This document shows, one piece after another, positions 1,843 to 40,863 of a stretch of DNA of 64,000 nucleotides. The stretch's first letter is position 1. The number at the start of each line of letters is the position of its first letter. Source of the DNA: Candidatus Omnitrophota bacterium. GTDB lineage: Bacteria > Omnitrophota > Gorgyraeia > Gygaellales > Profunditerraquicolaceae. The notes under the pieces are model-generated. The model ran no database searches. It was not told the origin of the DNA and was given only the letters and a program-made list of their open reading frames with translations. A program made the translations under genes and the position numbers. Location: the NCBI GenBank assembly GCA_028716705.1, contig JAQUPI010000002.1:14067-78066 (forward strand). Reading direction: 5' to 3'.

Positions 1843-2976
1843 CTAGCTCGCTATAGCTGCCTGGCCTAGTGAAACAGAAGAGTCATTACAGGACAGGACG
1901 TTATGAGTAAATACTTTGAAGCCTTCTTTAAATAATAGATCTAAAGCCGCTGTTAGTAAAAGCTTATTTTGGAAGACCCCTCCGGATAGAACTACCTTGT
2001 TTACCCGGTTTTCTTTTCGCAGGACAACGCTGGCCTTGAGGATCATCTGGGCTATTGTCCGGTGAAAGCGGAAAGCAATCTTCTCTTTCGGTTCTTTTTT
2101 TCTTAAATCCCGCACTATATCTGCGAACATGGGCGCCGGGTCTAAGATATAGCTGTTCTTTTCTTTGATGATCTTGAAACGGTAACCCCGCGGCCCGGCG
2201 CCCTGGTGACGTGCGGCTAATTTTTCCAATCCTATTGCTAATTCCGCCTCGAATGCGGCCTCGGCCTTCCCTAATACCAGGCTGCCGGCGGCGTCAAAAA
2301 GCCTGCCCATGCTGGCGGAAGAAGGCGAATTGAATCCTGAAAGATACATCCTTTTTAAAACCCGCCATTTTCCCGGGGTGATTTTTTTTACCGCGTTTAT
2401 TCCCATGCTGGGGAACTTATCCTTGTACAGCAGGAAAAGCCAGGCGGCGGCGAGCCTTGCCGGTTCCAATATCGCCTTTTCTGCCCCGAGAAGAGGTATT
2501 TGGGCGAGATGAGCGGCTCTGGTAAAATTCCGGTAATCGCAGACCAAAAATTCCCCTCCCCAAAGATGGTTATCGCTGCCAAGCCCGGTGCCGTCGAAAG
2601 CCACGCCGATCACTCTTTCGTTGCGCAGGCCGTTCTCCGCCATACAAGAGGCAATATGGGCATGATGATGCTGCACGGGCAATAAGCGGCGGGCGGCGGG
2701 CGAAAGAGAGAACGCGTATTTGGTTGACTGATATTCCGGATGCAGATCATGAGCGATAATTTCCGGATTCTTCTTAAGAAAATATTTTACGCATCTTTCA
2801 AAACTTAAGAAATCCTCGGGGTCGCTTAAATCCCGGTGGATCCGGGATAGATAAGCGAAGCCGCCTTGGGCGAAACAAACGGTGTTCTTTGCCTGCGTGC
2901 CCAGGGCCAGGACAGGTTTTCTTACCTTAAAAGGTAATTGTATCTTTTTATAAGAAACCGGGTTATCTTTTTGCAT
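1843..2976 (-). CDS. hypF: HypF-like carbamoyltransferase, Kae1-like C-terminal domain only
   Basis: 377 aa with the PVQHHHAHIAS metal-binding motif and VLALGTQAKNTVCFA at the start, aligning to HypF residues ~370-750. The acylphosphatase, Zn-finger and YrdC domains are absent. Sits directly upstream of hypC-hypD. Confidence 0.7.
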   Translation of the reverse strand: MQKDNPVSYKKIQLPFKVRKPVLALGTQAKNTVCFAQGGFAYLSRIHRDLSDPEDFLSFERCVKYFLKKNPEIIAHDLHPEYQSTKYAFSLSPAARRLLPVQHHHAHIASCMAENGLRNERVIGVAFDGTGLGSDNHLWGGEFLVCDYRNFTRAAHLAQIPLLGAEKAILEPARLAAAWLFLLYKDKFPSMGINAVKKITPGKWRVLKRMYLSGFNSPSSASMGRLFDAAGSLVLGKAEAAFEAELAIGLEKLAARHQGAGPRGYRFKIIKEKNSYILDPAPMFADIVRDLRKKEPKEKIAFRFHRTIAQMILKASVVLRKENRVNKVVLSGGVFQNKLLLTAALDLLFKEGFKVFTHNVLSCNDSSVSLGQAAIAS

Positions 2977-3743
2977 TTATCATTACCTATAGTCTTTTCA
3001 TCCAGAGAAGACAACGGCATTATCCCCATTAGCGAATTGGTCAGGAAGGCCTCCTGGCAAGAATATAAATCCGGAATTGTGAAATTCCCCTCGTATACTT
3101 TAATACCATATTTTTTGGCAAAATCAATGGCCGCCCTCCGGGTAATCCCGTCCAGGCATCCGCATTCGAGTGAAGGGGTAAATAGCCGCCCCTCATTGAC
3201 AAAAAATAAATTACTGCGGCTGCCTTCGGCGATATGGCCTTTGTGATTCAAAATTATGCCTTCATCAAAACCTTTATTTTGCGCCTCTTTCAGGGCCAAT
3301 CTATAAAGAAGATAATTCGTAGTTTTAAGGTTCGCCAGCAAAGAGGGGGCATCCTGGATGAAAGAAGAAACGCAACCCCTGAATCCCTTTCTATATTTTA
3401 AGGGCGGGAACTGTAAATATTTTTTGGCCGTAATCAGTATATCCGTTCCGCTTTCGGCTTTACTCAGGGTTATCCTTACCTGGCTGTCGCGAAATCCGCT
3501 TTTTCCGGCTGCCCTATAGACGATCTCCTTCAATCTGTCAGAAGGATAGGGGCATTTTATCCCTAACAGGCCCGCGCAATGATAAAGCCTTTTGAGGTGC
3601 TCCCGGAAATAAACGATCTTTTTATTACGGCAGCGCATAGTCTCGAATAGCCCCCAACCGTATAAGAATCCGGGCGTTGAAACGGATACTTTCGCCTTTT
3701 CTTGAGGGACGAATTTGCCATTTAAGAAAACGATCTGCCTCAT
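2922..3743 (-). CDS. pabC: Aminotransferase class IV, probable aminodeoxychorismate lyase
   Basis: 273 aa fold-type IV PLP enzyme (FLYGWGLFET; TNSLMGIMPL). 4-bp overlap with the upstream chorismate-binding enzyme gene. Confidence 0.6.
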   Translation of the reverse strand: MRQIVFLNGKFVPQEKAKVSVSTPGFLYGWGLFETMRCRNKKIVYFREHLKRLYHCAGLLGIKCPYPSDRLKEIVYRAAGKSGFRDSQVRITLSKAESGTDILITAKKYLQFPPLKYRKGFRGCVSSFIQDAPSLLANLKTTNYLLYRLALKEAQNKGFDEGIILNHKGHIAEGSRSNLFFVNEGRLFTPSLECGCLDGITRRAAIDFAKKYGIKVYEGNFTIPDLYSCQEAFLTNSLMGIMPLSSLDEKTIGNDKCKKITRFLIKRYNYLLR

Positions 3744-5092
3744 TTAATCGCCTGCATCATGCCTTTTGCCTTCACCAGCGTCTCCCGGTATTCTTCCTCC
3801 GGCTTAGAATCCGCGACAATGCCTCCCCCGACCCCAAAATACAGCTCTTTGTCTTTCTTTAATATAGTGCGGATTAAAATGTTTAAATCCATGCCTCCGG
3901 AAAAACTAAGGTAGCCGAGACTGCCTGTATAAATGGAGCGCCGGCGGGTCTCCAGTTCGTCGATAATCTCCATCGCGCGGATCTTGGGGCATCCAGTAAT
4001 GGAGCCTCCCGGGAAGCAGGCGCGGATCAGGTCAACCCTGTCCTGATTTTTATGCAGGCATCCGTAAACGGTAGCCGTGGTCTGAAAAACGGTGGAATAT
4101 TTTTCGAGCTGCCGCAGCCTGCTTACCTTTATGGAATCATAACTGCATACCCTGCCCAGGTCATTCCTCTCTAAATCCACGATCATCATCAACTCCGCCT
4201 TGTCCTTTGCGCTGGCAATTAGATCCTCCTTCAGCTTTATATCAAGGGCTTTATTCTTCGAACGGGGGCGCGTGCCTTTCATCGGCCGGGTCGTGACCCT
4301 GCCTCTCTCCAATCTTAAGAAAGCTTCCGGCGATGAGCTCAGGATCTGATAATCCCCGTAATCAATATAGGCGCCGAAACAGGAGGGGCTGAATTTTCTC
4401 AGCCGTTTATAGATCTGGGGCGCACTCAAGTCGGTTCGGGCACGAAATACCTGGGCGAGGTTTACTTGATAGATATCTCCTTTTTTGATGTACTCCTTTG
4501 CGCGCCTGACTGCCGCCATATATGCTTCTTTGGTGAAATTTGATTCCGCGGACGCGCCAACATTGACGGATTTATCTTTGAGGCTATTTTGGCTCGAGGC
4601 CGCCTCGCTAAGAAGCTTCTGTATTTTCCTGAAATTTCTCCGGCAGAGCGCTTTTTGCAGGCGATAATCTTTTTCAGGAAAGCCCGCGGCGAATATATAT
4701 AGCAGCTTTTTAAGATGGTCAATGGCGATCATGGTGTTATAAAATCCAAAAGAAAAATCGGGAACGGGGTTTTTGGGCCTTTGCCTGTTCTTAAATTTCT
4801 TTTCCAAGGCGAAACCCAGATCATAGGCTAAATGCCCGACTGCCCCTCCCAAAAAAGGAGGGGCGTTTCCGGTCAACGTAATTTTGTAGCGGTCTAAATT
4901 TTTTCTCAGTTCAGGCAAAGGGTCATCTCTCCCGGACTCTAAAACATAAAAAGGGTCCGCCCCCAGGAAAGAATACCGGCCCGGATAGAGGCTGCTATCC
5001 AGGAAAAAACACCGTTTTTGCCCTGCGAATGCGCCGAATATCCTCATCGGCTCCAAATTCAGTTTATATGATTTCAAAATGTAATATGCCAT
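3740..5092 (-). CDS. pabB: Aminodeoxychorismate (or anthranilate) synthase component I
   Basis: 450 aa chorismate-binding enzyme with the C-terminal GVGGGIVADSKPEEEYRETLVKA signature. Paired with the class-IV aminotransferase as pabB-pabC. The start may be the internal Met at ~5047. Confidence 0.7.
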   Translation of the reverse strand: MAYYILKSYKLNLEPMRIFGAFAGQKRCFFLDSSLYPGRYSFLGADPFYVLESGRDDPLPELRKNLDRYKITLTGNAPPFLGGAVGHLAYDLGFALEKKFKNRQRPKNPVPDFSFGFYNTMIAIDHLKKLLYIFAAGFPEKDYRLQKALCRRNFRKIQKLLSEAASSQNSLKDKSVNVGASAESNFTKEAYMAAVRRAKEYIKKGDIYQVNLAQVFRARTDLSAPQIYKRLRKFSPSCFGAYIDYGDYQILSSSPEAFLRLERGRVTTRPMKGTRPRSKNKALDIKLKEDLIASAKDKAELMMIVDLERNDLGRVCSYDSIKVSRLRQLEKYSTVFQTTATVYGCLHKNQDRVDLIRACFPGGSITGCPKIRAMEIIDELETRRRSIYTGSLGYLSFSGGMDLNILIRTILKKDKELYFGVGGGIVADSKPEEEYRETLVKAKGMMQAIK

Positions 5093-5882
5093 CCACCCTA
5101 AAAGTCCGTTGTTCGTTCCTTAAACAACAATGGCCTACCAGGTAGTTCCTGTTCTTCTCCTGGCGGATCTCCATGGGGATCACTTCCCTTTCGGAAACCG
5201 TCGCCAATCCGGATAAATATTTTATTTTAAGCCTTACCTGCAGGTCTATCGCTTCCTGTAACCGGGCCAACCTCTGGTTATTAATATCTTCGAGAAGTAC
5301 ACAATTGATCCCAAAAAGGCACATGAAATTAGCGAAGCCTTCTATCCCTTTAAGGGCTAATATTTCCTTGAGCCTGCCGAACACGTCGAGCGTCAATTCT
5401 ACATCGGAAAGGGCGCGATGCTTCTGTTCATTTTTTATGCCGAGGCTGTCTGCCACATAACGCAGCGAATAACGCTCTAATCCCGGCAGCAGCCTTCTGG
5501 ATATTTTTAAAATATCCGCGACCGCGTTGGCCGGAAGGCCTATCTCGAGTAATTTCAATTCATTGTGCAGGAAACCCTGGTCAAACGCGGCGTTATAAGA
5601 ACAAAGGCAGGACTCCCCGATGAAATCCAGGAATTTCGGGATAACCTCGCTCGCCGGCGGGGCATCCCGGAGCATCTCTTGAGTGATCCCGTTCACCGCA
5701 AAAGCGGCCGCGGATACGGGCCGTCCGGGATTAACCAGGCTTTGAAAAGTTTCCGCCCTTTCGTTTCCCTTGAATTTTATGCCGGCGATCTCCACTATCC
5801 TGTCGCCTGACTGCGGATTCAAACCCGTGGTCTCGGTATCAAATATAGTGAATTCTATCTCATCTATGTTTCTTTTATCCAT
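5064..5882 (-). CDS. DnaQ-like DEDDh 3'-5' exonuclease fused to a C-terminal WYL domain
   Basis: Exo motifs FDTETTG (I), YNAAFDQGFL (II) and HRALSD (III). The C-terminal NYLVGHCCLRNEQRTFRVDGILHFE matches the WYL-domain signature. Confidence 0.6.
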   Translation of the reverse strand: MDKRNIDEIEFTIFDTETTGLNPQSGDRIVEIAGIKFKGNERAETFQSLVNPGRPVSAAAFAVNGITQEMLRDAPPASEVIPKFLDFIGESCLCSYNAAFDQGFLHNELKLLEIGLPANAVADILKISRRLLPGLERYSLRYVADSLGIKNEQKHRALSDVELTLDVFGRLKEILALKGIEGFANFMCLFGINCVLLEDINNQRLARLQEAIDLQVRLKIKYLSGLATVSEREVIPMEIRQEKNRNYLVGHCCLRNEQRTFRVDGILHFEII

Positions 5883-5897
5883 TCCCTGGCTTTGTCT

Positions 5898-6788
5898 TCA
5901 TCTTTTGGCTATGTAAGCCGGGATCAATTTCAAGGGCCTATACGAAAGCTTTACTTCTTTAAGGTTATCCAGGCCTGAATCGTCCATAATATTTATGTAT
6001 TTAAAATCTTTGAGGTCAGCACAAAACTTTCGGAAGATGAACTGGGCCAGACCTTTAATGGATAGATCGGTTATCTCGTATAAAATGCAAAAGGTATCGC
6101 TGTTTAGCTTAAAACCTAAGCTGAAACCCTTTATCTTTTTATCTATCTTTACTACTTTTCCGGTAAGATTCAAATCCGCGTAACTATCCAGGGTTATTTT
6201 CAGGGATTTGCTGCTGTCTTCGATCATGCCCTGATAAACAGGGTCGTCGTTTCCTGCCTTGCGCTGCGCGGCCCAAGAACTGTACAACTTTAAACACTCT
6301 TTTTTTTGCCTGGGCGAAAAATTCATGTACTCGAATGTGTAATGCCCGGTAAAATAATTGAAGCTGGCGCGTTTGGATTTAAAACCGTTCCCTGACAAAT
6401 CGGCGAGGGCTTGTCTTGCGCAAAGATAATCGCATGATTTATTAGCGCAGGAGTAACCTGAATCTTTATAAAAAACAAGCTCGCGCTCTTCGATATTTTC
6501 TATGCGGGATATGTCCTTGTTTTTGTTAAAACTATCCATAATACCGAATGCTTTTTGAATGACTCCCGGGTTGTTCCTCTTTGATAGAGGCGGCAGATAT
6601 AAAAAACATCCTGTCCGGTCTACGAAAAATATACAGAGGCATTTTTCGATGACAGACCAGCGGATATCAAAGAGCGCCTTCCATATATAGATATTTTCAA
6701 AAGCATAAACAGATAATTCGTGCCTGCCAATGGCTAGAAATTCATTAAATATCTCGCTGTCTTTAAGGGATAGGCGGTTAAGCTCCAT
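5898..6788 (-). CDS. DUF2156 protein (MprF C-terminal-like aminoacyl-tRNA-dependent transferase fold), soluble
   Basis: 296 aa with KGFSLGF and FKSKRASFNYF motifs that parallel the MprF synthase domain. No transmembrane segment. Confidence 0.45.
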   Translation of the reverse strand: MELNRLSLKDSEIFNEFLAIGRHELSVYAFENIYIWKALFDIRWSVIEKCLCIFFVDRTGCFLYLPPLSKRNNPGVIQKAFGIMDSFNKNKDISRIENIEERELVFYKDSGYSCANKSCDYLCARQALADLSGNGFKSKRASFNYFTGHYTFEYMNFSPRQKKECLKLYSSWAAQRKAGNDDPVYQGMIEDSSKSLKITLDSYADLNLTGKVVKIDKKIKGFSLGFKLNSDTFCILYEITDLSIKGLAQFIFRKFCADLKDFKYINIMDDSGLDNLKEVKLSYRPLKLIPAYIAKR

Positions 6789-7281
6789 CGGGCGTCTCTA
6801 ATTCAATAATATCTAAAACATCCTCGTACGCCTGTATGATCTGGGGATTTTCCTTTAGGAGCTTGATTTGCGCGGGGGAGTTCAGGAAAGAGATCAAGGA
6901 TTCGGTATATTTTTTAAACTCCTCTTTTTTTAAGTTTTCGGTTACATAGGGACAGTTTAGATCCAGCGTCAAGACGACCCTTCCCTTCCTTAAATTGATC
7001 AGGAATGGGTAAAGCCGGCATTCGAAGGGACGGAAATCATAGATCTTGCATCTATTGTCTTCAGCCCTAAGAAACGGGCAGATAAAACCTTCTTCCGCCG
7101 GATCGGGTATGGGCATTAACTTCTTATTTGCGGATATGCAGGCTGGAGGGATCTTCTTATCCAGCAGATCCTGGATCTCCTCTTCTAAGAGGCACGGAGA
7201 CCACGCGGAGTCCAATTTTTTAAACCGGCAGCATCCGCGGCATTTAAGGCAAAACTCTTGTGGAATAATCTGCGCGATCAT
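6778..7281 (-). CDS. YkgJ-family Zn/Fe-chelating protein (CxxCxxCC)
   Basis: 167 aa with N-terminal CLKCRGCCRF and further Cys clusters, matching UPF0153/YkgJ. Confidence 0.6.
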   Translation of the reverse strand: MIAQIIPQEFCLKCRGCCRFKKLDSAWSPCLLEEEIQDLLDKKIPPACISANKKLMPIPDPAEEGFICPFLRAEDNRCKIYDFRPFECRLYPFLINLRKGRVVLTLDLNCPYVTENLKKEEFKKYTESLISFLNSPAQIKLLKENPQIIQAYEDVLDIIELETPDGA

Positions 7282-7598
7282 TTGACAACGCTTCCCAATT
7301 TTACTTCCCTGGCCGGGCTTACGATAACAATTCCGGTTTCATCGGAAGCCGCCAGAAGCATCCCCTGGCTTTCCACTCCGCGCAATACCGCCGGATCCAG
7401 ATTATCTACTACGACCACCTGCTTGCCGATGAGTTCTTCTTTCTGATAAGAACCCCTTATACCGGCGACGATCTGTTTTGTCTTATCGCCCAGATCCACG
7501 ATAATTACATAAAGCCGGTCAGCGTTCGGATGCTCCTGGACTTCCTTTATCTTAGCGACCTTTAACTCTATTTTCCTGAAATCTTCGATGCTCGCCAT
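7278..7598 (-). CDS. csaA: tRNA-binding protein CsaA/Trbp111 (EMAP-like OB fold)
   Basis: The ORF-track protein contains KIELKVAKIKEVQEHPNADRLYV and GMLLA motifs. Start re-assigned to ATG 7598 (Met13), which is preceded by AAGGAG-N5. Confidence 0.7.
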   Translation of the reverse strand: MASIEDFRKIELKVAKIKEVQEHPNADRLYVIIVDLGDKTKQIVAGIRGSYQKEELIGKQVVVVDNLDPAVLRGVESQGMLLAASDETGIVIVSPAREVKLGSVVK

Positions 7599-7603
7599 AC
7601 TAT

Positions 7604-7657
7604 CTCCTTGCGCAGAAAGCGCACACCAAACCATCCGATAAAATTGGGTGTTATCCG
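7604..7657 (-). promoter_or_regulatory. Conserved intercistronic 5'-leader element, copy A: two hairpins plus an SD
   Basis: About 94% identical to 19821..19874. The RNA sense is UAG-ACGGAUAACACCCAAUUUUAUCGGAUGGUUUGGUGUGCGCUUUCUGCGCAAGGAG-N5-AUG. It exactly fills the gap between the OMP stop and the csaA start. Confidence 0.6.
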
Positions 7658-7658
7658 T

Positions 7659-9173
7659 CTAAAAAATGAATTCAACCGATGTTTCGATCATATAAGCCGG
7701 GTCCGCCTTGCCGTCACCGCGCACAAAAGGGGAAAATAGGCTTCCCGCGGCATCTTCCCTGAATTCTTTATAGTATTTCCCGGGGATGAAATAACCTCCA
7801 GAAATTTCGAGCAGCGTATTTTTATTCAGCTTGTATACCGCTGTTATATCCATTTCATGGCCCAGTTCCCTGGATAAATACCGTGCCTGCCCGTCAAGCG
7901 TACCCACACCTTTCTCTAGGGATTGCAAATAGAAATAATCAAAGCTCAGATCCAGCTTTGGGGTAACTTCCAAGTCAAACCCCGGAGCGAGAATGATCAG
8001 ATTGTCGAAATCCGAGGCGGCAAAAGTTTCCGGCCGCGGGATTCCGTAAACCAATGAGTAACAGCTCCCCATGAAAACCAAGGGGCGGATCTCGCAATGC
8101 CAGCTGCCGATAGAATCGTCTAAATTAAAGTTCAAGGGGGAGTAATAGCTGAACGCGCGGTTCTTTCCGCTCGCTGAAAGCGTATCCCCGTTTTGCGCCG
8201 CGTCCAGCGAAACCTTGTTCCCGGAAGCCAAAAGGAATTTAAAGAACGGTTCTAGCTTTCCGAAGGCGTAACTTGTATCGGTATAAAGCATATAACCGGC
8301 GTGGTATATATCTTTAAAATCGCCGCTTTCGCTTTTGCCTTTGCCGAAGTTCCGCGCTGTCTCGGCGGTAAAAGATAATTTATCCCCCTTTAAGCTGAAG
8401 GCAAGACCCAATGTCCCCAAGATATCCCTTTTAATCGGAGCGCTGAATACGCTGTCCCTCTTTCCGCTGGAAGTGTAATCGGTCAGCGCCCCTATATAAG
8501 GATTCAGGTAATTATCTTCCCACTCGTATTTAATATCCGCGGCGAAGAAATTGGCGGCATTATGCTCATAACGATAATCCTGCTCTTCGTCTTGGCGGAT
8601 GCGCGGGCCCAGGCGTACCTTATAAAATGAATCCGGGCGGGCGTAATATAAGCGCAGCATGGAATTCTGGAATTTTTTGTAGAGCGTGGCTCCGTAATTC
8701 TCGTAGGCGCCGCTTAAGCTCAGGCCTTCTCCAACTTCGTAAGCGTAAAGCCCGAGTTTAATGCCTAAATTATTCCTTAGGGGAACGTCGACCCAGAATT
8801 CCTCTATATTTGGAAGCAATTCATCATTACGGTATTCTTCGACTACGCCGCCTGAGGTCATCAGCGTATTGTGTGCGAATAGAGGGGCGTTGTAATCTCC
8901 CGGCCCGTTCCTTTCCAGTTTAAAAAAATATGTCGGCCCCGCGGTTTTAGGTTCGACTAACGCGCTCAGACTGTAATCTATGCCCAGATAGGTAGTTGTA
9001 TCGTCGCTATTGGCGCTATCCAAATCTACGGTATTTTTAAACGAGATAACGTCAGTCCTGGAATAAACTCCCAGGTCAACGGTAAAATTCTCCGTTTCAA
9101 ATAAGGGCGCGCCGAAGCAAGCTCCCCTTAAAAGGAAAAATAATAAAAAAAATAACGATGATTTATTTGACAT
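7659..9173 (-). CDS. Outer-membrane beta-barrel protein (putative porin/export channel)
   Basis: 504 aa with an N-terminal signal peptide (FFLLFFLLRGACFGA), alternating amphipathic strands and a C-terminal aromatic ...VEFIF. Confidence 0.5.
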   Translation of the reverse strand: MSNKSSLFFLLFFLLRGACFGAPLFETENFTVDLGVYSRTDVISFKNTVDLDSANSDDTTTYLGIDYSLSALVEPKTAGPTYFFKLERNGPGDYNAPLFAHNTLMTSGGVVEEYRNDELLPNIEEFWVDVPLRNNLGIKLGLYAYEVGEGLSLSGAYENYGATLYKKFQNSMLRLYYARPDSFYKVRLGPRIRQDEEQDYRYEHNAANFFAADIKYEWEDNYLNPYIGALTDYTSSGKRDSVFSAPIKRDILGTLGLAFSLKGDKLSFTAETARNFGKGKSESGDFKDIYHAGYMLYTDTSYAFGKLEPFFKFLLASGNKVSLDAAQNGDTLSASGKNRAFSYYSPLNFNLDDSIGSWHCEIRPLVFMGSCYSLVYGIPRPETFAASDFDNLIILAPGFDLEVTPKLDLSFDYFYLQSLEKGVGTLDGQARYLSRELGHEMDITAVYKLNKNTLLEISGGYFIPGKYYKEFREDAAGSLFSPFVRGDGKADPAYMIETSVEFIF

Positions 9174-9229
9174 GAGCGAAAGGATATAAAATAAGACGAA
9201 AAAAGACGGTGGGTGAATAAATACAAAAA

Positions 9230-9305
9230 CGGGGTCGACGAGATTTGAACTCGCGTTCTTCGCCGTGACAGGGCGACGTGTTAGACCAGGCTACACCACG
9301 ACCCC
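9230..9305 (-). tRNA. tRNA-Asp (GTC)
   Basis: Reverse complement GGGGTCGTGGTGTAGCCTGGTCTAACACGTCGCCCTGTCACGGCGAAGAACGCGAGTTCAAATCTCGTCGACCCCG folds as a cloverleaf. Anticodon loop CTGTCAC. No CCA encoded. Confidence 0.9.
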
Positions 9306-9372
9306 AAAACAATTGGAGTTAAATTTTAACTTAAAAAGGCGATAATTACAATAAATTTCTACGAAAAGATAC

Positions 9373-9449
9373 TGGTGGGCGGTAGAGGAATCGGACCCCT
9401 GACCTTCTCTGTGTAAGAGAGACGTTCTAACCAGCTGAACTAACCGCCC
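9373..9449 (-). tRNA. tRNA-Val (TAC)
   Basis: Reverse complement GGGCGGTTAGTTCAGCTGGTTAGAACGTCTCTCTTACACAGAGAAGGTCAGGGGTCCGATTCCTCTACCGCCCACCA. Anticodon loop CTTACAC. CCA is encoded. Confidence 0.9.
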
Positions 9450-30924: not shown

Positions 30925-33354
30925 TTACTCTTCTTCCGCGATAACGTGGGCAACTCCGGAAACCCGGTCTTTGCCTTGCAGTTTAATTAACCGCACCCCC
31001 TGCGCGGACCTTCCCGTAGCGCGTATATCTTTTACCGCGCAACGCAAAAACATCCCGTTCTGCGTGATGACCATAAGCTCATCTTTATCGTTTACGGTCT
31101 TAAGGCTTACTACCTCTCCATTCTTATCCGTAACGCGCATATTAATAATGCCTTTTCCGCCGCGGCTTGTCAAGCGGTATTCCTCGGCGGGAGTGCGTTT
31201 GGCGAAACCGAGCTGGGTGACGGTCAGGATGTTAGTTCCTTTCTGCGCGAGGATCATACCGATCACTTCGTCTTTCTTGCCTAAAGAGATCGCGCGCACG
31301 CCCCCGGCCTGCCTGCCCATATCGCGCACTTTATTTTCAGGAAATCTGATGGCTTTGCCCTGCCTGGTCCCGATAAGCAGCTCATGCTTGCCGTCGGTCA
31401 GCTCAACCCCGATAAGCTCATCCCCCTTATCGAGGGTAATGCCGATAATCCCGCCTTTGCGGGGATTGCCGTAAGCGTCAAGTTTGGTTTTTTTGATCTT
31501 ACCCTGCCTGGTAACCATGACCAGGTATTTATCCCCGGAAAATTCTTTTACCGGCACGGTGGAGCTGACCTTGGAGCCCGCCTCCATATCCAAGAGATTA
31601 ACTATCGCCTTGCCCTTGGAAGTACGGCTGCCCTGAGGTATCTCATAAACTTTGAGCCAATGCACCTGCCCCTTGCCAGTAAAGATTAAAAGATATTCTT
31701 TGGTTGAGGCCACAAAGAGGTGCTCTACGAAGTCTTCTTCCTTGACCTCGGCTCCGGTTGCTCCCGTGCCTCCCCGCCTCTGTTTACGGTAAGCGCTCAC
31801 CGGGAGGCGTTTTATATACCCTCCGTGGCTGATGGTGACTACCACGTCTTCTTCGGCGATCAAGTCCTCGACTTCCAATTCTTCCACTTCTCCGACGATA
31901 TCCGTCCTGCGCTCATCGCCGTATTTTTTCTTCAGGTTCTCCAGCTCCTCCTTGATAATGCCTTCTACTTTCTTCTCGGAAGCAAGGATGGCTCTGCATA
32001 ATTCGATCTTCTTTAAAAGCTCCGCGTATTCCGCGTCGATCTTATCCCGCTCGAGGGCGGTAAGCCGCTGGAGCTGCATCTCCAGTATGGCCTGGGACTG
32101 CGCATCGGAAAGGCCGAATTCCTTCATCATCCGGGCCTTGGCCTCTTCAGTGTTCTTGGACGTTTTTATCAGCTTGATGATCCGGTCAATATTTTTCAGG
32201 GCGATCTTCAGGCCTTCCAGTATGTGCGCCCTCTTCAGGGCCTTGTCCAGCTCGAATTGCGTCCTGCGGCGGATGATATTTTTACGGTGGTCTATGTAAT
32301 ACCCCAGGACCTGCCGCAGGGTCAGCACCCTCGGCCGGTTATCCACCAGCGCCAGCATGATAATGCCGAAGGTCGTTTCCAGCTGGGTATGTTTGAACAG
32401 CTGATTCAATACTATCTGCGGCTCAACGTCGCGCTTTAGCTCCACCACCATCCTTAAGCCGTCCTTATCGGATTCATCGCGGATGTCCGAGATACCTTCT
32501 ATTTTTTTCTCATCCACCAGGTTGGCTATAGATTCGATGATCGAGGATTTTTGGATCTGATAGGGGATTTCGGTGACGACGATCAGGTCTTTCCCGTTTT
32601 TCTGGTGCTCAACCGTAGCCCTGGCCCGCAAGGTAACCTTGCCTTTGCCCGAAGCGTAAGCTTCTTTGATGCCTTCCTTGCCGCAGATGACCCCTCCGGT
32701 AGGAAAATCCGGCCCCTTTACATAACGCATCAGGTCTTTTAGTTCGGCCTCCGGCTGGTCCAATAGGTAAATAATGGCGTCCGCGACCTCGTTAAGATTA
32801 TGCGGAGGAATGTTCGTAGCCATGCCCACGGCGATTCCGCTCGAGCCGTTTACCAGCAAATTGGGCAGCGCCGCGGGGAGCAAAAGCGGCTCTTTCAGCG
32901 AAGAATCGAAATTGGGCCCGAAATCCACCGTTTCCTTGTCGATATCGCCGAGCATCTCGTCGCTAATGGCATCCAGGCGGGCTTCGGTATACCGCATCGC
33001 CGCGGCAGCGTCCCCGTCGATCGATCCAAAATTACCCTGGCCTTCCACCAAGGGGTAACGCAAAGAGAAATCCTGCGCCATCCTTACCAGGGTGTCGTAG
33101 ACCGCCACGTCTCCGTGCGGATGGTATTTACCCAAAACTTCTCCGACGATACGCGCGCATTTCTTGTAGGGCTTGCTGTGGTCAAGATTCAATTCCTGCA
33201 TGGCAAAAAGGATCCTGCGGTGGACGGGCTTTAAGCCATCGCGCACGTCAGGCAAGGCCCGTCCGACGATTACGCTCATGGCGTAATTTAAATACGAGTC
33301 CTTTACTTCCTCTTCGATACAAACCGGGACTATCTTTTCATTGCGAGTGTACAT
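30925..33354 (-). CDS. gyrA: DNA gyrase subunit A
   Basis: 809 aa with [23 protein letters not shown] and C-terminal beta-pinwheel repeats. Confidence 0.95.
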
Positions 33355-33355
33355 G

Positions 33356-36108
<2,753 letters not shown>

Positions 36109-36122
36109 CGGTATGCGCTTTA

Positions 36123-37214
36123 TTAATTTAAGCGCATGGGCAGCACGATATAAACATACCCGTTAATGCGGATCACCCCGGGTTTCTCCGCGTCAGTAAG
36201 TTCGAAAGCCACCCTCTCTTCGCACAAATTTTTAAGGACATCCATTAAGTAGCTCGGGTTAAAACCCGCTACGATCTCCTTGCCCTGATACTCAATGGGC
36301 ACTTCCTCCCTCGACTCCCCGACATCCGGCGTACTCTTGGAAACCACCATCTTGTTTTTAAATACCTCCAGTTTTACCGCCTGATAATCGGGGGTAGAAA
36401 GCAAGGCTGCCCTTTTTACCGCTAATAGGAATTGTTCCCTCCCGACACCGATCTTATTTTCCGCCGCGGGCGGGATTACCTGTTGGTAGTCGGGGAACTC
36501 GCCTTCGATCAAACGGGAAATGATTATGACATCGCCCAAGTCAAAAAGCGCCTGGTTATTCCCTAAAAGCATGGAGACCTCGCCCTCCTCCTGTAAGTTA
36601 CGGCTTAACTCCTGGATTGTTTTAAGAGGAACAATGATCTGCAAATCCTTCTCCGTGTTTTTATTTAACTTCCTCTGTATAACAGCCAGCCGCTTGCCGT
36701 CAGTGGCTACCAGAGTAATATTATCCCGGCTGATCTTAAATAATATACCGTTCAGAATATACCTGGTTTCATCAATAGACACCGCAAAAGACGTAAGGGC
36801 AAGCATCTCCTTAAGAACGGCTTGCTCTATCTTTAATACGCCGCCCTCCTTGAATTCGGGTAATTTTGGGAAATCCTCAAAAGGCAGCCCCATTATCTTA
36901 AACTGGCATGATTTTGTCTCAATAATAACCAAGTTGTTCTTCTTGGTGTTAATGTTTAACTTATCATCGGGGAGCTCTTTAATAATATCCCCGAACCTTT
37001 TCGCGGGAATAGTAATCATTCCTGGTTCCTGGATATCCACAGGAATTACACAGCTTATCCCTACATCCAGATCCGTAGCGGTTAACCTTATTTTATCCTT
37101 TTCCGCTTCCACCAATATATTGGATAATATGGGTAAGGCGGACCTGACTGAGATCACATTTTGAACTTTCTGTATTCCGGCGATTAATTTATCCTTGCTA
37201 ATTTCCACTTTCAT
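36123..37214 (-). CDS. dnaN: DNA polymerase III beta sliding clamp
   Basis: 363 aa, three-domain clamp ending ...PMRLN. Confidence 0.9.
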   Translation of the reverse strand: MKVEISKDKLIAGIQKVQNVISVRSALPILSNILVEAEKDKIRLTATDLDVGISCVIPVDIQEPGMITIPAKRFGDIIKELPDDKLNINTKKNNLVIIETKSCQFKIMGLPFEDFPKLPEFKEGGVLKIEQAVLKEMLALTSFAVSIDETRYILNGILFKISRDNITLVATDGKRLAVIQRKLNKNTEKDLQIIVPLKTIQELSRNLQEEGEVSMLLGNNQALFDLGDVIIISRLIEGEFPDYQQVIPPAAENKIGVGREQFLLAVKRAALLSTPDYQAVKLEVFKNKMVVSKSTPDVGESREEVPIEYQGKEIVAGFNPSYLMDVLKNLCEERVAFELTDAEKPGVIRINGYVYIVLPMRLN

Positions 37215-37395: not shown

Positions 37396-38736
37396 TTATT
37401 GTTGAATAACCTGGATAATCCTTTCTACCTTGTTTTTTAAAAAACTATCAGTGTTGATGTCCCCTTTGATCTTATTGAACGAATGCAATACGGTAGTGTG
37501 GTCTTTACCCCCAAAATAATTGCCTATTTCAGGAAGCGACAGGTCTGTTAACTCCCTGCTTAAATACATTGCCACTTGCCTCGGGACGACTATGTTCTTA
37601 TTGCGCCGCTTCATTTTTAGCTCTTGTAACGATACGGCAAATTCTTCGGCAACACAACGCTGGATGAAATCGACAGTGATCAACTTCTTAGCCTCTTTTA
37701 ACAGATCCCTTAACACGCCTTTTGCTAATTCCAGGGTAATGGGTTTTTCCTCCAATAGGGCGTAGGCGATGATGCGTATCAGGGCGCCTTCTAATTCCCG
37801 GACGTTGGTTTTGATCAGCTGGGCGATGAAGAAGATAACATCATCGGGAACCGAAATGGGCTCTCTCTCTATTTTCTTCTTTAAAATGGCCACGCGCGTT
37901 TCCAGGTCTGGCGGCTGGATATCCGTGGTCAGCCCCCACCCAAAACGCGAAACCAGCCTGTCCTGCAGGTTGGATATTTCTTTCGGCGGCCGGTCGGAAG
38001 ATATTATGATCTGTTTGTGGGCATCGTATAATGCATTAAAAGTGTGGAAGAATTCTTCCTGGGTGGATTCTTTCCCGGCGATGAAATGTATGTCGTCGAT
38101 GACCAGCATGTCGGCGTTACGGTATTTTTGCCTGAAGGCCGGAGTAGAATGATGTTGTATCGCGTCGATCAATTCATTGGTGAATTTCTCCGAGCTCATG
38201 TAGCACATTTTTAAATTTCCCCCAAGCTTTTCTTTGGTGCGGTGGCATATTGCCTGCATTAAATGCGTTTTGCCCAGGCCGACCCCCCCGTAAATGAATA
38301 GGGGATTATAGGCCTTCGCGGGAGAATCGGCCACGGCCAAAGAATAGGCGTGCGCGTGACGGTTAGACGAGCCGACCACGAAATTCTCGAATGTGTAGCG
38401 CGGGTTAAGGGCGAAGGATTCCCGGAGGTCTTTTGTTTTTCCGGGTGACTGGCGTATCCCGGTTTCAGCGGCCTGGGCCGCGGCTTGCGGATTAACCTCA
38501 AAAGCGACTTGTACTCCTTCCTTCAGGCATGAGGCGGCCTCTTCTTCTATGATCCGCTTATAATGCTGCTCTACCCAGTCCCTAAAAAATTTATCCGGCG
38601 CCTGCAAGGTAAGCCCCTCTTTGTTATCCTCTTGCGGCCTTAATTGAAGGGGATTGATCCAGGTTTCAAAGGCGGATTTGCCCAGCTTGTCCCGTAAATG
38701 CTCTTTTATTTGATCCCAGGCTTTAAACATATTCAC
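37396..38736 (-). CDS. dnaA: Chromosomal replication initiator DnaA
   Basis: 446 aa with an AAA+ domain (GGVGLGKTHL) and a C-terminal DNA-binding domain. Confidence 0.95.
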   Translation of the reverse strand: MNMFKAWDQIKEHLRDKLGKSAFETWINPLQLRPQEDNKEGLTLQAPDKFFRDWVEQHYKRIIEEEAASCLKEGVQVAFEVNPQAAAQAAETGIRQSPGKTKDLRESFALNPRYTFENFVVGSSNRHAHAYSLAVADSPAKAYNPLFIYGGVGLGKTHLMQAICHRTKEKLGGNLKMCYMSSEKFTNELIDAIQHHSTPAFRQKYRNADMLVIDDIHFIAGKESTQEEFFHTFNALYDAHKQIIISSDRPPKEISNLQDRLVSRFGWGLTTDIQPPDLETRVAILKKKIEREPISVPDDVIFFIAQLIKTNVRELEGALIRIIAYALLEEKPITLELAKGVLRDLLKEAKKLITVDFIQRCVAEEFAVSLQELKMKRRNKNIVVPRQVAMYLSRELTDLSLPEIGNYFGGKDHTTVLHSFNKIKGDINTDSFLKNKVERIIQVIQQ

Positions 38737-39345: not shown

Positions 39346-40863
39346 ATGGAAACGGAAAAGCGTTTATTTTTAGCCATCGCGTTAGCCTTAGTTGTCTTGT
39401 TGAGCTGGTCAACGTTCGCTTCTAAGCGTTATCCCATTGAAAATAAACAAGTTACGACTAGCACGGCCAGCGTAAAACCATTTTCAAGGGTTCAGCCTTT
39501 ACCCCAAATCCCAGAATCTACCGACGATACCGAAACTAATTTCCCGCATGAAAAGTATGATATTGTTTTCAGTGAATCGCGGGCAGCGGTTAAATCCATA
39601 AATTTTAAAAGTTATCAAAACTACGTCTTTCCTTTGAAGTCCGGTTTTCAATTAAACCAGCCTGGTTTAAATTTCAAGACGAAAGAAATTGATCGAAAAA
39701 ACGCCATATTCGCGCATACAGATGCCGCTAAAGAGATCATCAAGAAATTTGATTTTTCCAAGTCTAATTATACCATAGGGTTAGAGATTACAGTCAAAAA
39801 TTTCTCCACAAACACGCTGAAGATGGCTCTCCCCGTGATCCTGGGAGAATTGAGCTCGGCGGGAGGGCATGAAGAAGCCAGGCTTAGGGACGTAACTTTT
39901 GCCGGCAGAGACAAGATAACGCATTTAAATTTACGCAAAGAAGCGGAGCAGGAGGAGATTAAATTCGTAGCTTTACGAGATAGGTACTTTTGCGCTATCC
40001 TCTCTCCTATTGCATCGACTTACAATGGTTATCTAAGCAAAAAAAGCGCCCAGGATTATGAGATTGGCGTATTAGGACCAGAATTCGAAGTATTGCCCGG
40101 CGAAGAAAAGATTTTTAACTTCGATATATATTTAGGGCCGCAAGAATTACGCCAGATCTCAAACATTAATCCGGATTGGACAGCGGTAATGTATTACGGG
40201 ACCTTTGATTTTATCGCCCACCTGCTCTTACAGTTATTGTATTTTATTTTTGGTTTGCTCAGAAATTGGGGCTTGACCATCGTAGTTATCAGCGTTATAA
40301 TTTATTTTATCCTTTTTCCACTATCTTTAAAACAGATGCATTCCATGAAACAGATGCAGGTTCTGCAGCCGCGTATTGAAGAGCTAAGAAAGGCTTATAA
40401 GAATAATCCCCAGAAGCTTAACGCGGAGATAATGCAATTATACAAGACCTATAAAGTCAACCCCTTTAGCGGCTGCCTGCCTTTAATTTTGCAGATACCC
40501 ATCTTCTTTGCTTTATATCAGGTACTTATCCGTTCAGTAGCCCTCAAGGGGGCGAGTTTCCTTTGGATAAAGGATTTATCCGCTCCTGACCGGTTATTTT
40601 TACTTCCTTTTTCTCTGCCGGTTCTGGGGAATGAGATCAATTTATTGCCTATTTTGATGACCATAGGGATGTTTGTTCAGCAGAAATTTTCCATGGCTAC
40701 TGCAACCTCTGGTTCCGCGGAGCAACAGAAATTGATGTTGATCTTGATGCCTCTCATGTTCGGCTTCATTTTTTATCATATGCCATCGGGTTTAGTTTTA
40801 TATTGGTTTACGAATAGCACGCTTATGCTCGTATATCAGTTGAAAATAAACCGACAAAAATAA
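39346..40863 (+). CDS. yidC: Membrane protein insertase YidC
   Basis: 505 aa with a periplasmic domain and a C-terminal 5-TM Oxa1 core. Confidence 0.9.
   Translation: METEKRLFLAIALALVVLLSWSTFASKRYPIENKQVTTSTASVKPFSRVQPLPQIPESTDDTETNFPHEKYDIVFSESRAAVKSINFKSYQNYVFPLKSGFQLNQPGLNFKTKEIDRKNAIFAHTDAAKEIIKKFDFSKSNYTIGLEITVKNFSTNTLKMALPVILGELSSAGGHEEARLRDVTFAGRDKITHLNLRKEAEQEEIKFVALRDRYFCAILSPIASTYNGYLSKKSAQDYEIGVLGPEFEVLPGEEKIFNFDIYLGPQELRQISNINPDWTAVMYYGTFDFIAHLLLQLLYFIFGLLRNWGLTIVVISVIIYFILFPLSLKQMHSMKQMQVLQPRIEELRKAYKNNPQKLNAEIMQLYKTYKVNPFSGCLPLILQIPIFFALYQVLIRSVALKGASFLWIKDLSAPDRLFLLPFSLPVLGNEINLLPILMTIGMFVQQKFSMATATSGSAEQQKLMLILMPLMFGFIFYHMPSGLVLYWFTNSTLMLVYQLKINRQK

Follow-up and report, generated by a model that had tools for sequence, protein, structure and literature searches.

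A DEDDh exonuclease joined to a WYL domain in Omnitrophota, and its possible role in handling single-stranded DNA

The 64,000-nucleotide stretch of a Candidatus Omnitrophota genome analysed here (assembly GCA_028716705.1, contig JAQUPI010000002.1, positions 14,067 to 78,066; referred to below as the window) carries on its minus strand, at 5064..5882, a gene that joins a DEDDh exonuclease domain to a WYL domain. The gene is a single open reading frame (ORF) of 272 amino acids plus a stop codon, with an ATG start; a preliminary description of 5064-5882, made from the DNA letters, had given no strand. An identical database protein is annotated 'exonuclease domain-containing protein [Candidatus Omnitrophica bacterium]' (P0001). 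The reading we favour, and to which we give an even chance, is that the product is a housekeeping 3'-5' exonuclease of single-stranded DNA (ssDNA) with a built-in WYL module that binds ssDNA.

The exonuclease domain (residues 10-175; 5358..5855, minus strand) was matched by the Pfam RNase_T model PF00929 over residues 13-168, at E 7.7e-38 and 131 bits (cut-off 24), and is of the DnaQ/PolC-exo type. The three Exo motifs and the catalytic histidine that the preliminary description noted in the N-terminal part of the protein are all present. Exo I is FDTETTGL (residues 14-21, 5820..5843), with catalytic D15 and E17, and Exo II is NAAFDQGF (residues 97-104, 5571..5594), with catalytic D101. Exo III, of the epsilon type, is HRALSD (residues 155-160, 5403..5420) and supplies the general base H155, which defines the DEDDh class, together with catalytic D160. 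All three lie on the minus strand, and their coordinates were checked. In an alignment of 64 family members these five residues are invariant or nearly so: D15 and E17 are kept in at least 90% of members, F100 is invariant in Exo II with N97 and D101 close to it, and R156 and D160 are invariant in Exo III with H155 nearly so. The DEDHD set is intact in 127 of 138 representatives, the remainder being fragments or single exceptions. With D-x-E in Exo I, an aspartate in Exo II and H-x4-D in Exo III (histidine, not tyrosine, as the general base), the protein is by its sequence a member of the DEDDh, or DnaQ-like, superfamily, and 3'-5' exonuclease activity is predicted.

The closest sequences to this domain are the PolC-type exonuclease of T. 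maritima (2p1j, 2.4e-28), PolC and the exonuclease of E. coli epsilon. In Foldseek it matched the S. thermophilus DnaQ domain, E. coli epsilon, PolC, the DinG exonuclease and ExoX, with a root-mean-square deviation (rmsd) of ~1.7-2.0 Å and probability 1.00. The nearest relatives (PolC exo, epsilon, ExoX, the DinG exonuclease domain and Cas2-DEDDh) act on DNA, and identity to DNA proofreaders is 30-36%, against 22% to RNase T. RNase T itself was found only as a structural match (rmsd ~3 Å in Foldseek); there was no RNase T chain among the PDB sequence matches at E ≤0.01, and no RNase T model among the 25 NCBIfam matches listed.

The closeness of PolC exo and epsilon would fit a protein that acts as this lineage's equivalent of the Pol III epsilon subunit, with the WYL domain replacing the C-terminal tail of epsilon and gripping, for example, the template or primer strand. 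So would the conserved position of the gene in the core chromosome near the origin, and the names of many source records, which are frequently 'DNA polymerase III epsilon subunit'. Those names were assigned automatically, however, and no NCBIfam equivalog was found for the query or for ten relatives: none of the epsilon or PolC equivalog models reached its cut-off, the query scoring 116 against 222.7 for TIGR01406 (dnaQ_proteo), 112 against 196 for PRK05711 and 94 against 236 for PRK06310. For the query and the ten relatives alike, the sole NCBIfam model over its cut-off was the generic dnaq domain model, TIGR00573. The alpha(PHP)-binding segment at the C-terminus of epsilon is absent, the residues past 175 being a folded linker and the WYL domain, and dnaE, polC and holA-type genes were never adjacent in the contexts seen. 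The only string resembling a clamp-binding motif, NFMCLF (residues 187-192), was rejected, as it lies inside a confidently predicted helix and is not conserved. A proofreading role is therefore improbable in our estimation, which agrees with the view of the preliminary description that this is not a replicative proofreading subunit.

The WYL module (residues 194-272; 5067..5303, minus strand) is made up of a long helix, 194-214, and a five-stranded SH3/Sm-like barrel, whose strands were placed by AlphaFold2 at residues 218-223, 229-242, 245-252, 257-262 and 266-271. The preliminary description had read a WYL signature at the C-terminus, and the Pfam search bore this out: PF13280 matched residues 205-270 at E 1.6e-12 and 47.6 bits (gathering score 21.8), and a scan of the C-terminal 92 amino acids alone gave E 1.8e-13. 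Modelled separately with AlphaFold2, the C-terminal domain had a predicted local distance difference test score (pLDDT) of 95.9, and this model matched the solved WYL domains of PafBC, BrxR, CapW and DriD with template modelling (TM) scores of 0.78-0.84 and rmsd of 1.1-2.0 Å, WYL1 being a more distant structural match. This agreement is far above chance level.

Searches of the PDB brought two kinds of WYL protein to the front. A profile built from the C-terminal regions of the family members matched PafBC best (1.5e-25), followed by the WYL domains of the Pif1 helicases from Deferribacter (1.4e-15) and Sulfurihydrogenibium (7.7e-13), with PafC, PafB, CapW, BrxR and DriD as lower-ranked matches. 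The single query sequence gave only one clear WYL match, the Deferribacter Pif1 helicase (2.7e-5), the regulators standing at ~1. Pfam found no helix-turn-helix (HTH) domain, the N-terminus being taken up by the exonuclease, and the WCX extension is absent, as the protein stops at residue 272, directly past the final barrel strand. The likeness to BrxR and CapW drawn in the preliminary description thus holds for the WYL fold and fails for the HTH and WCX modules.

The residues of the WYL groove are those expected of a domain that binds ssDNA. The predicted single-strand-binding residues, from conservation and alignment, are Y222, R232, Y247, C252, R259, F261 and R262 (5097..5219, minus strand). 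The peptide quoted in the preliminary description, NYLVGHCCLRNEQRTFRVDGILHFE, covers residues 246-270 and contains a degenerate WYL motif (NYL, which includes Y247), C252 and R259-x-F-R262. Y222, P236, C252 and F261 do not vary across the aligned family members, R232, R259 and I266 hardly do, and R262 and Y247 are common. R232, C252, R259 and R262 align with R470, C494, R501 and R504 of the T. elfii helicase TePif1 (by way of the DdPif1 alignment and the TePif1 mutant study), and mutation of these residues in TePif1 lowered ssDNA binding ~15-fold. The isolated TePif1 WYL domain bound ssDNA and not double-stranded DNA, and in that helicase it is a monomeric accessory ssDNA-binding module on an enzyme. 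R259-x-F-R262 also corresponds to the R-x-x-R pair that PafB and PafC need in order to bind ssDNA. Y222, R232, Y247, R259, F261 and R262 map to DriD Y168, R178, Y192, R204, W206 and R207, which are ssDNA-contacting WYL residues. The DriD mapping was taken from HMMER coordinates on chain 7U02_B, not from a printed alignment, and its offset was inferred from the numbering (the chain has 195 residues, the length of DriD 133-327). As far as an alignment can tell, the domain retains all the residues tied by experiment to ssDNA binding in TePif1, DriD and PafBC. Residue conservation of this kind suggests that it binds a single-stranded nucleic acid or a nucleotide ligand.

The whole protein, modelled by AlphaFold2 from an alignment of 64 sequences, had a pLDDT of 96.1 and a predicted TM score (pTM) of 0.85. 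In the model the RNase H-like exonuclease domain extends to about residue 177 and is followed by a short helix, 183-190, then by the long helix 194-214 and the five strands. The structured linker between the domains (residues 176-193, including helix 183-190; 5304..5357, minus strand) was assigned from the AlphaFold2 secondary structure at a pLDDT of at least 85. The pTM suggests that the two domains may be held in a fixed mutual arrangement. A Foldseek search with the whole model found matches to solved structures in the exonuclease half only, and neither a solved structure nor a predicted viral protein in BFVD spanned both domains (query-normalised TM ≤0.60).

We infer from this combination that ssDNA is both the ligand and the substrate. 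The protein would be a stand-alone, chromosomal, Mg-dependent 3'-5' exonuclease of the DnaQ/PolC-proofreader clade, and its WYL domain a sequence-independent binder of single-stranded nucleic acid, most likely ssDNA. With part of a single strand gripped in the WYL groove, the DEDDh site would take nucleotides off its 3' end. This could give the enzyme higher affinity or processivity on ssDNA tails, flaps or gaps, or could make the nuclease active only where ssDNA is present. Since ssDNA is probably both what the WYL domain binds and what the nuclease degrades, the sequence cannot tell gating from tethering. The cellular role would be DNA repair or ssDNA clearance; a part in defending against phages or in degrading a second messenger is unlikely.

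Among characterised proteins the query is probably closest in its mode of working, by analogy, to the WYL-bearing Pif1 helicases (TePif1; DdPif1 from Deferribacter, 8BNV; SsPif1 from Sulfurihydrogenibium, 8BNS). Like the query, these are nucleic-acid enzymes with one C-terminal WYL barrel and neither HTH nor WCX, and, as described above, Pif1 provides the best single-sequence and second-best profile match to the query WYL domain. They differ in having a superfamily 1B helicase rather than a DEDDh exonuclease as the catalytic partner, and all the Pif1 examples come from thermophiles. Pif1 also moves 5'-3' with its WYL domain on the 5' side, whereas the query enzyme would work from the 3' end.

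The regulators PafBC, DriD, CapW and BrxR, in which a winged HTH is followed by WYL and WCX, share with the query the WYL fold and the Tyr, Arg, Cys and R-x-F-R ligand residues. The ligand demonstrated for the WYL domains of PafBC, DriD, CapW and Pif1 is ssDNA. The query is not a member of this group, as it has neither an HTH nor the WCX that serves in dimerisation and ligand clamping, and the output of the regulators is transcription where the query has a fused nuclease. In DriD and PafBC ssDNA is clamped between WYL and WCX, an arrangement that is impossible in the query; as the WCX clamp is missing, the stand-alone barrel of the Pif1 type is the better analogue. On the exonuclease side, E. 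coli epsilon (1J53), the T. maritima enzyme (2P1J), ExoX (4FZX), the DinG exonuclease (8ZEF) and Cas2-DEDDh (8FY9) share the DEDDh core at 30-36% identity and rmsd ~1.8 Å. The query is set apart from epsilon, PolC, ExoX, DinG and Cas2-DEDDh by having a WYL barrel as its C-terminal partner, and not a polymerase- or clamp-binding tail, a helicase or Cas2.

The fusion itself has been catalogued before. Makarova, Anantharaman, Grishin, Koonin and Aravind (2014; PMC4012209) listed WYL with a '3'->5' exoRNase' among the enzymatic fusions of WYL, apparently the same architecture; it was listed as an architecture only, within a defence-centred framework, while the contexts seen here are housekeeping ones. 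Exonuclease fusions of WYL were also mentioned by Gozzi et al. (2022). The query is a further member of this catalogued but uncharacterised architecture.

The WYL domain looks like an accessory module. The clearest sign of this comes from two Omnitrophota loci, where the exonuclease gene at the syntenic position encodes only ~200 amino acids and stops after the linker helix, with no WYL domain (L008, 7998-8618; L010, ~7030-7587). The gene order there is unchanged (tRNA_bind, CxxCxxCC, DUF2156, exonuclease, pabB, pabC), with pabB beginning immediately after the exonuclease. Among the 138 representatives, which have at most 340 amino acids, the canonical R/C/R groove is found in 92; in another 17 the C-terminal domain has lost these residues, and 29 have no WYL domain at all. 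WYL-less relatives terminate right past linker helix 183-190. They are dispersed over a neighbour-joining tree of the exonuclease domain, in which parsimony gave ~24 changes of state, although the tree is a crude one. It is because such positional orthologues, and 29 of the 138 representatives, lack the WYL domain while the catalytic residues are kept that we favour an accessory role, and the same orthologues argue against an obligatory gate; the preliminary description had called the protein a WYL-gated exonuclease.

Among the 17 is a coherent clade of about ten members (P0176, P0195, P0213, P0226, P0241, P0243, P0253, P0258, P0261 and P0265), which has kept a C-terminal domain of the same length and an intact DEDDh set but has lost the Arg and Cys residues of the groove. 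The WYL domain may also have a structural role in these proteins. One further relative, P0425 (433 amino acids), has tetratricopeptide repeats fused to RNase_T and WYL.

The family is large, and for the most part appears to be inherited vertically. The 120 best relatives are all ~272 amino acids long and 63-72% identical to the query, have both domains and come from metagenome-assembled genomes (MAGs) of Omnitrophota. Among 1.84 billion cluster representatives 222 clusters scored below 1e-30, and about 100 of the best 150 clusters are full-length DEDDh-WYL proteins, with identity down to 30%. Named members beyond Omnitrophota come from Anaerolineae (Chloroflexota), Methylomirabilota, Ignavibacteriales, candidate division WOR-3 and Rudaea; the taxonomy of these distant members was taken from exact cluster look-ups and a second profile, the first family-alignment profile having returned mostly close Omnitrophota relatives. 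A scan of the genome collection with 14-sequence, Exo I-derived patterns gave mostly generic DnaQ and PolC proteins, with WYL only in L003-L006. Matches in that collection to residues ~253-271, in Bacillota-type records and one from Actinomycetota, were without a WYL domain, and the Bacillus-type ones resemble PolC.

Within the window the exonuclease gene stands fourth in a row of nine genes that run in one direction (tRNA_bind, CxxCxxCC, LPG_synthase_C/DUF2156, exonuclease, pabB, pabC, the C-terminal half of HypF, hypC and hypD); these overlap by 4-55 nucleotides or are separated by gaps of 4-15 nucleotides. The genes upstream, identified by Pfam and all on the minus strand, are tRNA_bind (7278-7634), CxxCxxCC (6778-7281) and LPG_synthase_C/DUF2156 (5898-6788); from tRNA_bind through CxxCxxCC and DUF2156 to the exonuclease the spacing is -4, -11 and +15 nucleotides. 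Downstream, pabB (3740-5092, minus strand) overlaps the 3' end of the exonuclease gene by 29 nucleotides at its start and is followed by pabC (2922-3743, minus strand), both again from Pfam. At the exonuclease gene itself Rfam and tRNA scans found no RNA elements, and promoter- and terminator-like sites showed no excess over shuffled expectation.

The four-gene cluster from tRNA_bind to the exonuclease (5064-7634 in the window) is present in ten Omnitrophota loci (L001-L006, L008, L010, L085 and L089), and over all the Omnitrophota loci examined identity falls to 38% for the exonuclease and 32% for DUF2156. The downstream side varies among relatives, with PilZ, HypF or unknown genes in other loci. 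This conservation is one starting point for a different account of the protein, in which the WYL barrel binds single-stranded RNA (ssRNA) and the DEDDh domain, like RNase T, trims the 3' ends of RNA, alongside the tRNA_bind protein and the aminoacyl-tRNA-dependent transferase encoded upstream. The same-strand order of the four genes was kept in ten of ten Omnitrophota loci and the window while the genes downstream changed, and in another locus, L092, tRNA_bind lies immediately upstream of the exonuclease gene. In an unrelated lineage the gene for a FemAB-family aminoacyl-tRNA transferase overlaps the 3' end of the exonuclease gene (L093/L094, 7001-8970), and in L131 archease, a cofactor of the RNA ligase RtcB, comes next after it. 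The structural match to RNase T and the name '3'->5' exoRNase' given to the fusion partner by Makarova et al. (2014; PMC4012209) point the same way. The FemAB and archease neighbours are single cases, however, and a member of the same clade sits between MutL and TatD. The long-range synteny in Omnitrophota also takes in unrelated genes (V-ATPase, hyp and PilZ), so adjacency may mean no more than slow rearrangement. The identity of the exonuclease domain to DNA proofreaders, and the absence of RNase T from the sequence matches at E <0.01, argue against RNA as the substrate, and DriD prefers ssDNA over ssRNA. Overall we think an RNA-directed enzyme unlikely. A more specific version takes the four Omnitrophota genes as a module that combines a tRNA-binding protein, a metal-binding CxxCxxCC protein, the DUF2156 aminoacyl-tRNA-dependent transferase and the exonuclease, with the WYL-tethered nuclease acting on tRNA 3' ends and, for example, trimming or resetting CCA alongside non-ribosomal use of aminoacyl-tRNA. 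This is a long shot; if true, the module would represent a novel type of tRNA-end surveillance.

The gene belongs to the core chromosome. Further along the window are gyrA (30925-33354), gyrB (33356-35830), dnaN (36123-37214) and dnaA (37396-38736), all on the minus strand, and yidC (39346-40863) on the plus strand. The sign of the GC skew and the orientation of the genes switch at ~38-40 kb, where the cumulative skew has its minimum, and the window spans the chromosomal replication origin. From the position of dnaA, dnaN and gyrBA and the flip in GC skew, the exonuclease gene therefore lies ~33 kb from the origin, on the leading strand, in the core chromosome.

Two other features of this region were seen. 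The hypF gene (1843-2976, minus strand), which overlaps pabC by 55 nucleotides, encodes only the C-terminal, Kae1-like half of the protein (HypF_C and HypF_C_2, 377 amino acids), without the acylphosphatase, zinc-finger and YrdC parts; relatives are alike or split further (L001, L002 and L092). On the upstream side of the cluster (7659-~17200, minus strand) a gene for an alginate-export-like outer-membrane protein (7659-9173) is accompanied by tRNA-Asp and tRNA-Val (9229-9449) and by the operon of a V-type ATPase. V-ATPase genes were found upstream of the cluster in L001 and L089 too, a sign that the synteny is long-range.

We surveyed the neighbourhood of the gene in ~25 contexts from at least four named phyla, ~15 of them independent contexts outside Omnitrophota. 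In Methylomirabilota (L083, 6239-9683) MutL lies upstream of the exonuclease gene and TatD downstream, and in Anaerolineae (L086, 7367-8855) the gene for RNase HII overlaps its start. In Ignavibacteriales (L091, 6334-13893) a PolB-exo-like (PF10108) gene overlaps the start of the DEDDh-WYL gene, with recA-recX upstream, and in L131 (3088-7207) UvrA precedes the exonuclease gene. Elsewhere the neighbours include alpha/beta hydrolases, a cyclic-nucleotide (cNMP)-binding protein, DnaJ, a ribosome hibernation factor, an acyltransferase and others. We considered and rejected one conserved functional partner outside Omnitrophota, as a single protein clade adjoins MutL/TatD, FemAB, alpha/beta hydrolases, the cNMP-binding protein, DnaJ and others. 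Repair genes were neighbours in four or five of the ~15 independent contexts outside Omnitrophota, against ~1 expected if such genes make up ~3% of a genome, a rough estimate of our own. The contexts are housekeeping ones with a recurring flavour of DNA repair, and the repair role mentioned in the preliminary description remains a live option.

About 3 kb further along the Ignavibacteriales locus a divergent HTH_11...WCX regulator stands beside a small RNase_T gene (164 amino acids) and an AAA ATPase. This group could be an exonuclease module under the control of a WYL regulator.

The same survey bears on the possibility that the protein is an effector nuclease gated by a ligand, the WYL domain sensing a nucleotide second messenger or a signal of infection or damage and turning the exonuclease on, in defence or in the degradation of the messenger. 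WYL is a ligand sensor in BrxR, CapW, PafBC, DriD and WYL1, and the title of one paper has a WYL regulator sensing cyclic di-GMP (c-di-GMP); the rigid arrangement of the domains predicted by the model would be compatible with allostery. In PADLOC the matches were to the generic DEDDh and WYL domain models, which stand there as CRISPR-associated domains, and of the exonuclease part to the candidate system PDC-S48. These matches are at the level of domains only, and the four neighbouring genes had no match in PADLOC. No defence gene (cas, restriction, CBASS, BREX or other) adjoined the exonuclease gene in any of the ~25 contexts, and the nearest defence genes within ~7 kb were those of one type I restriction-modification system ~5 kb away (L092). 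The 60-72% identity across many Omnitrophota MAGs at a fixed syntenic position indicates vertical inheritance rather than the patchy inheritance typical of defence genes, and the nuclease is kept in lineages in which the WYL domain has been lost or has degraded.

Collections of mobile-element sequences also spoke against a gated effector. The phage and plasmid collections held 197 and 471 DnaQ-like matches, seven of which cover at least 80% of the query; the WYL domain was absent from the two of these seven that were examined (H6 and H13). In IMG/VR one of 102 confirmed DnaQ-like relatives has a WYL domain (L177, 522-3089; IMGVR_UViG_3300035105_000308), and its gene stands beside a second small WYL gene, a pairing that would suit a gated effector. 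The DEDDh-WYL gene is at the end of the contig, with a tail-tip-like gene ~4 kb away and the small WYL ORF (170 amino acids) coming after it; the gene may be accessory to a phage or may belong to flanking host DNA.

The query is part of no catalogued defence system, and a ligand-gated effector seems to us a poor prospect. The preliminary description, which had suggested a signal-regulated nuclease possibly acting on a second messenger or in defence, had itself proposed a survey of gene neighbourhoods as a check, and had named a consistent replication or housekeeping setting of homologues as grounds for refuting the idea. The housekeeping contexts, the lack of a defence island in any of the ~25, the position in the core chromosome and the domain-level PADLOC matches all speak against it. 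What the preliminary description observed in the protein is confirmed, and its interpretation is partly supported.

Several points weigh against the favoured reading of a housekeeping ssDNA exonuclease. Repair neighbours were confined to the four or five contexts given above, the rest being unrelated, and in Omnitrophota the conserved neighbours are tRNA-related genes, not repair genes. The exonuclease-domain tree behind the repeated loss of WYL is crude, and some of the short forms are possibly truncated gene calls. DEDDh enzymes are often active on DNA and RNA alike. WYL domains are also able to bind ssRNA or c-di-GMP, to go by the title of a paper. These two properties, of the nuclease and of the binding domain, make ssDNA the likely rather than the certain ligand and substrate. 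Literature searches that paired WYL with exonuclease, DEDDh or DnaQ turned up no study of the fusion, whether biochemical, structural or contextual. We nevertheless rate the RNA-directed enzyme, the gated effector and the proofreader each below an exonuclease that handles ssDNA in repair or clearance.

The exonuclease-WYL gene of the window is an ordinary conserved housekeeping gene of the Omnitrophota chromosome. In annotation, DEDDh-WYL proteins should not be named 'DNA polymerase III epsilon subunit', nor should a lone WYL domain be read as a sign of defence. WYL domains are known to sense ssDNA in regulators that control phage defence or the response to DNA damage, and Pif1 helicases use one as a grip on ssDNA. 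An uncharacterised DEDDh-WYL family spread over several phyla offers a simple system for asking whether WYL tethers an enzyme to the molecule that it degrades or gates the enzyme on that molecule. A DEDDh-WYL enzyme could also clear the ssDNA signal that WYL regulators read.

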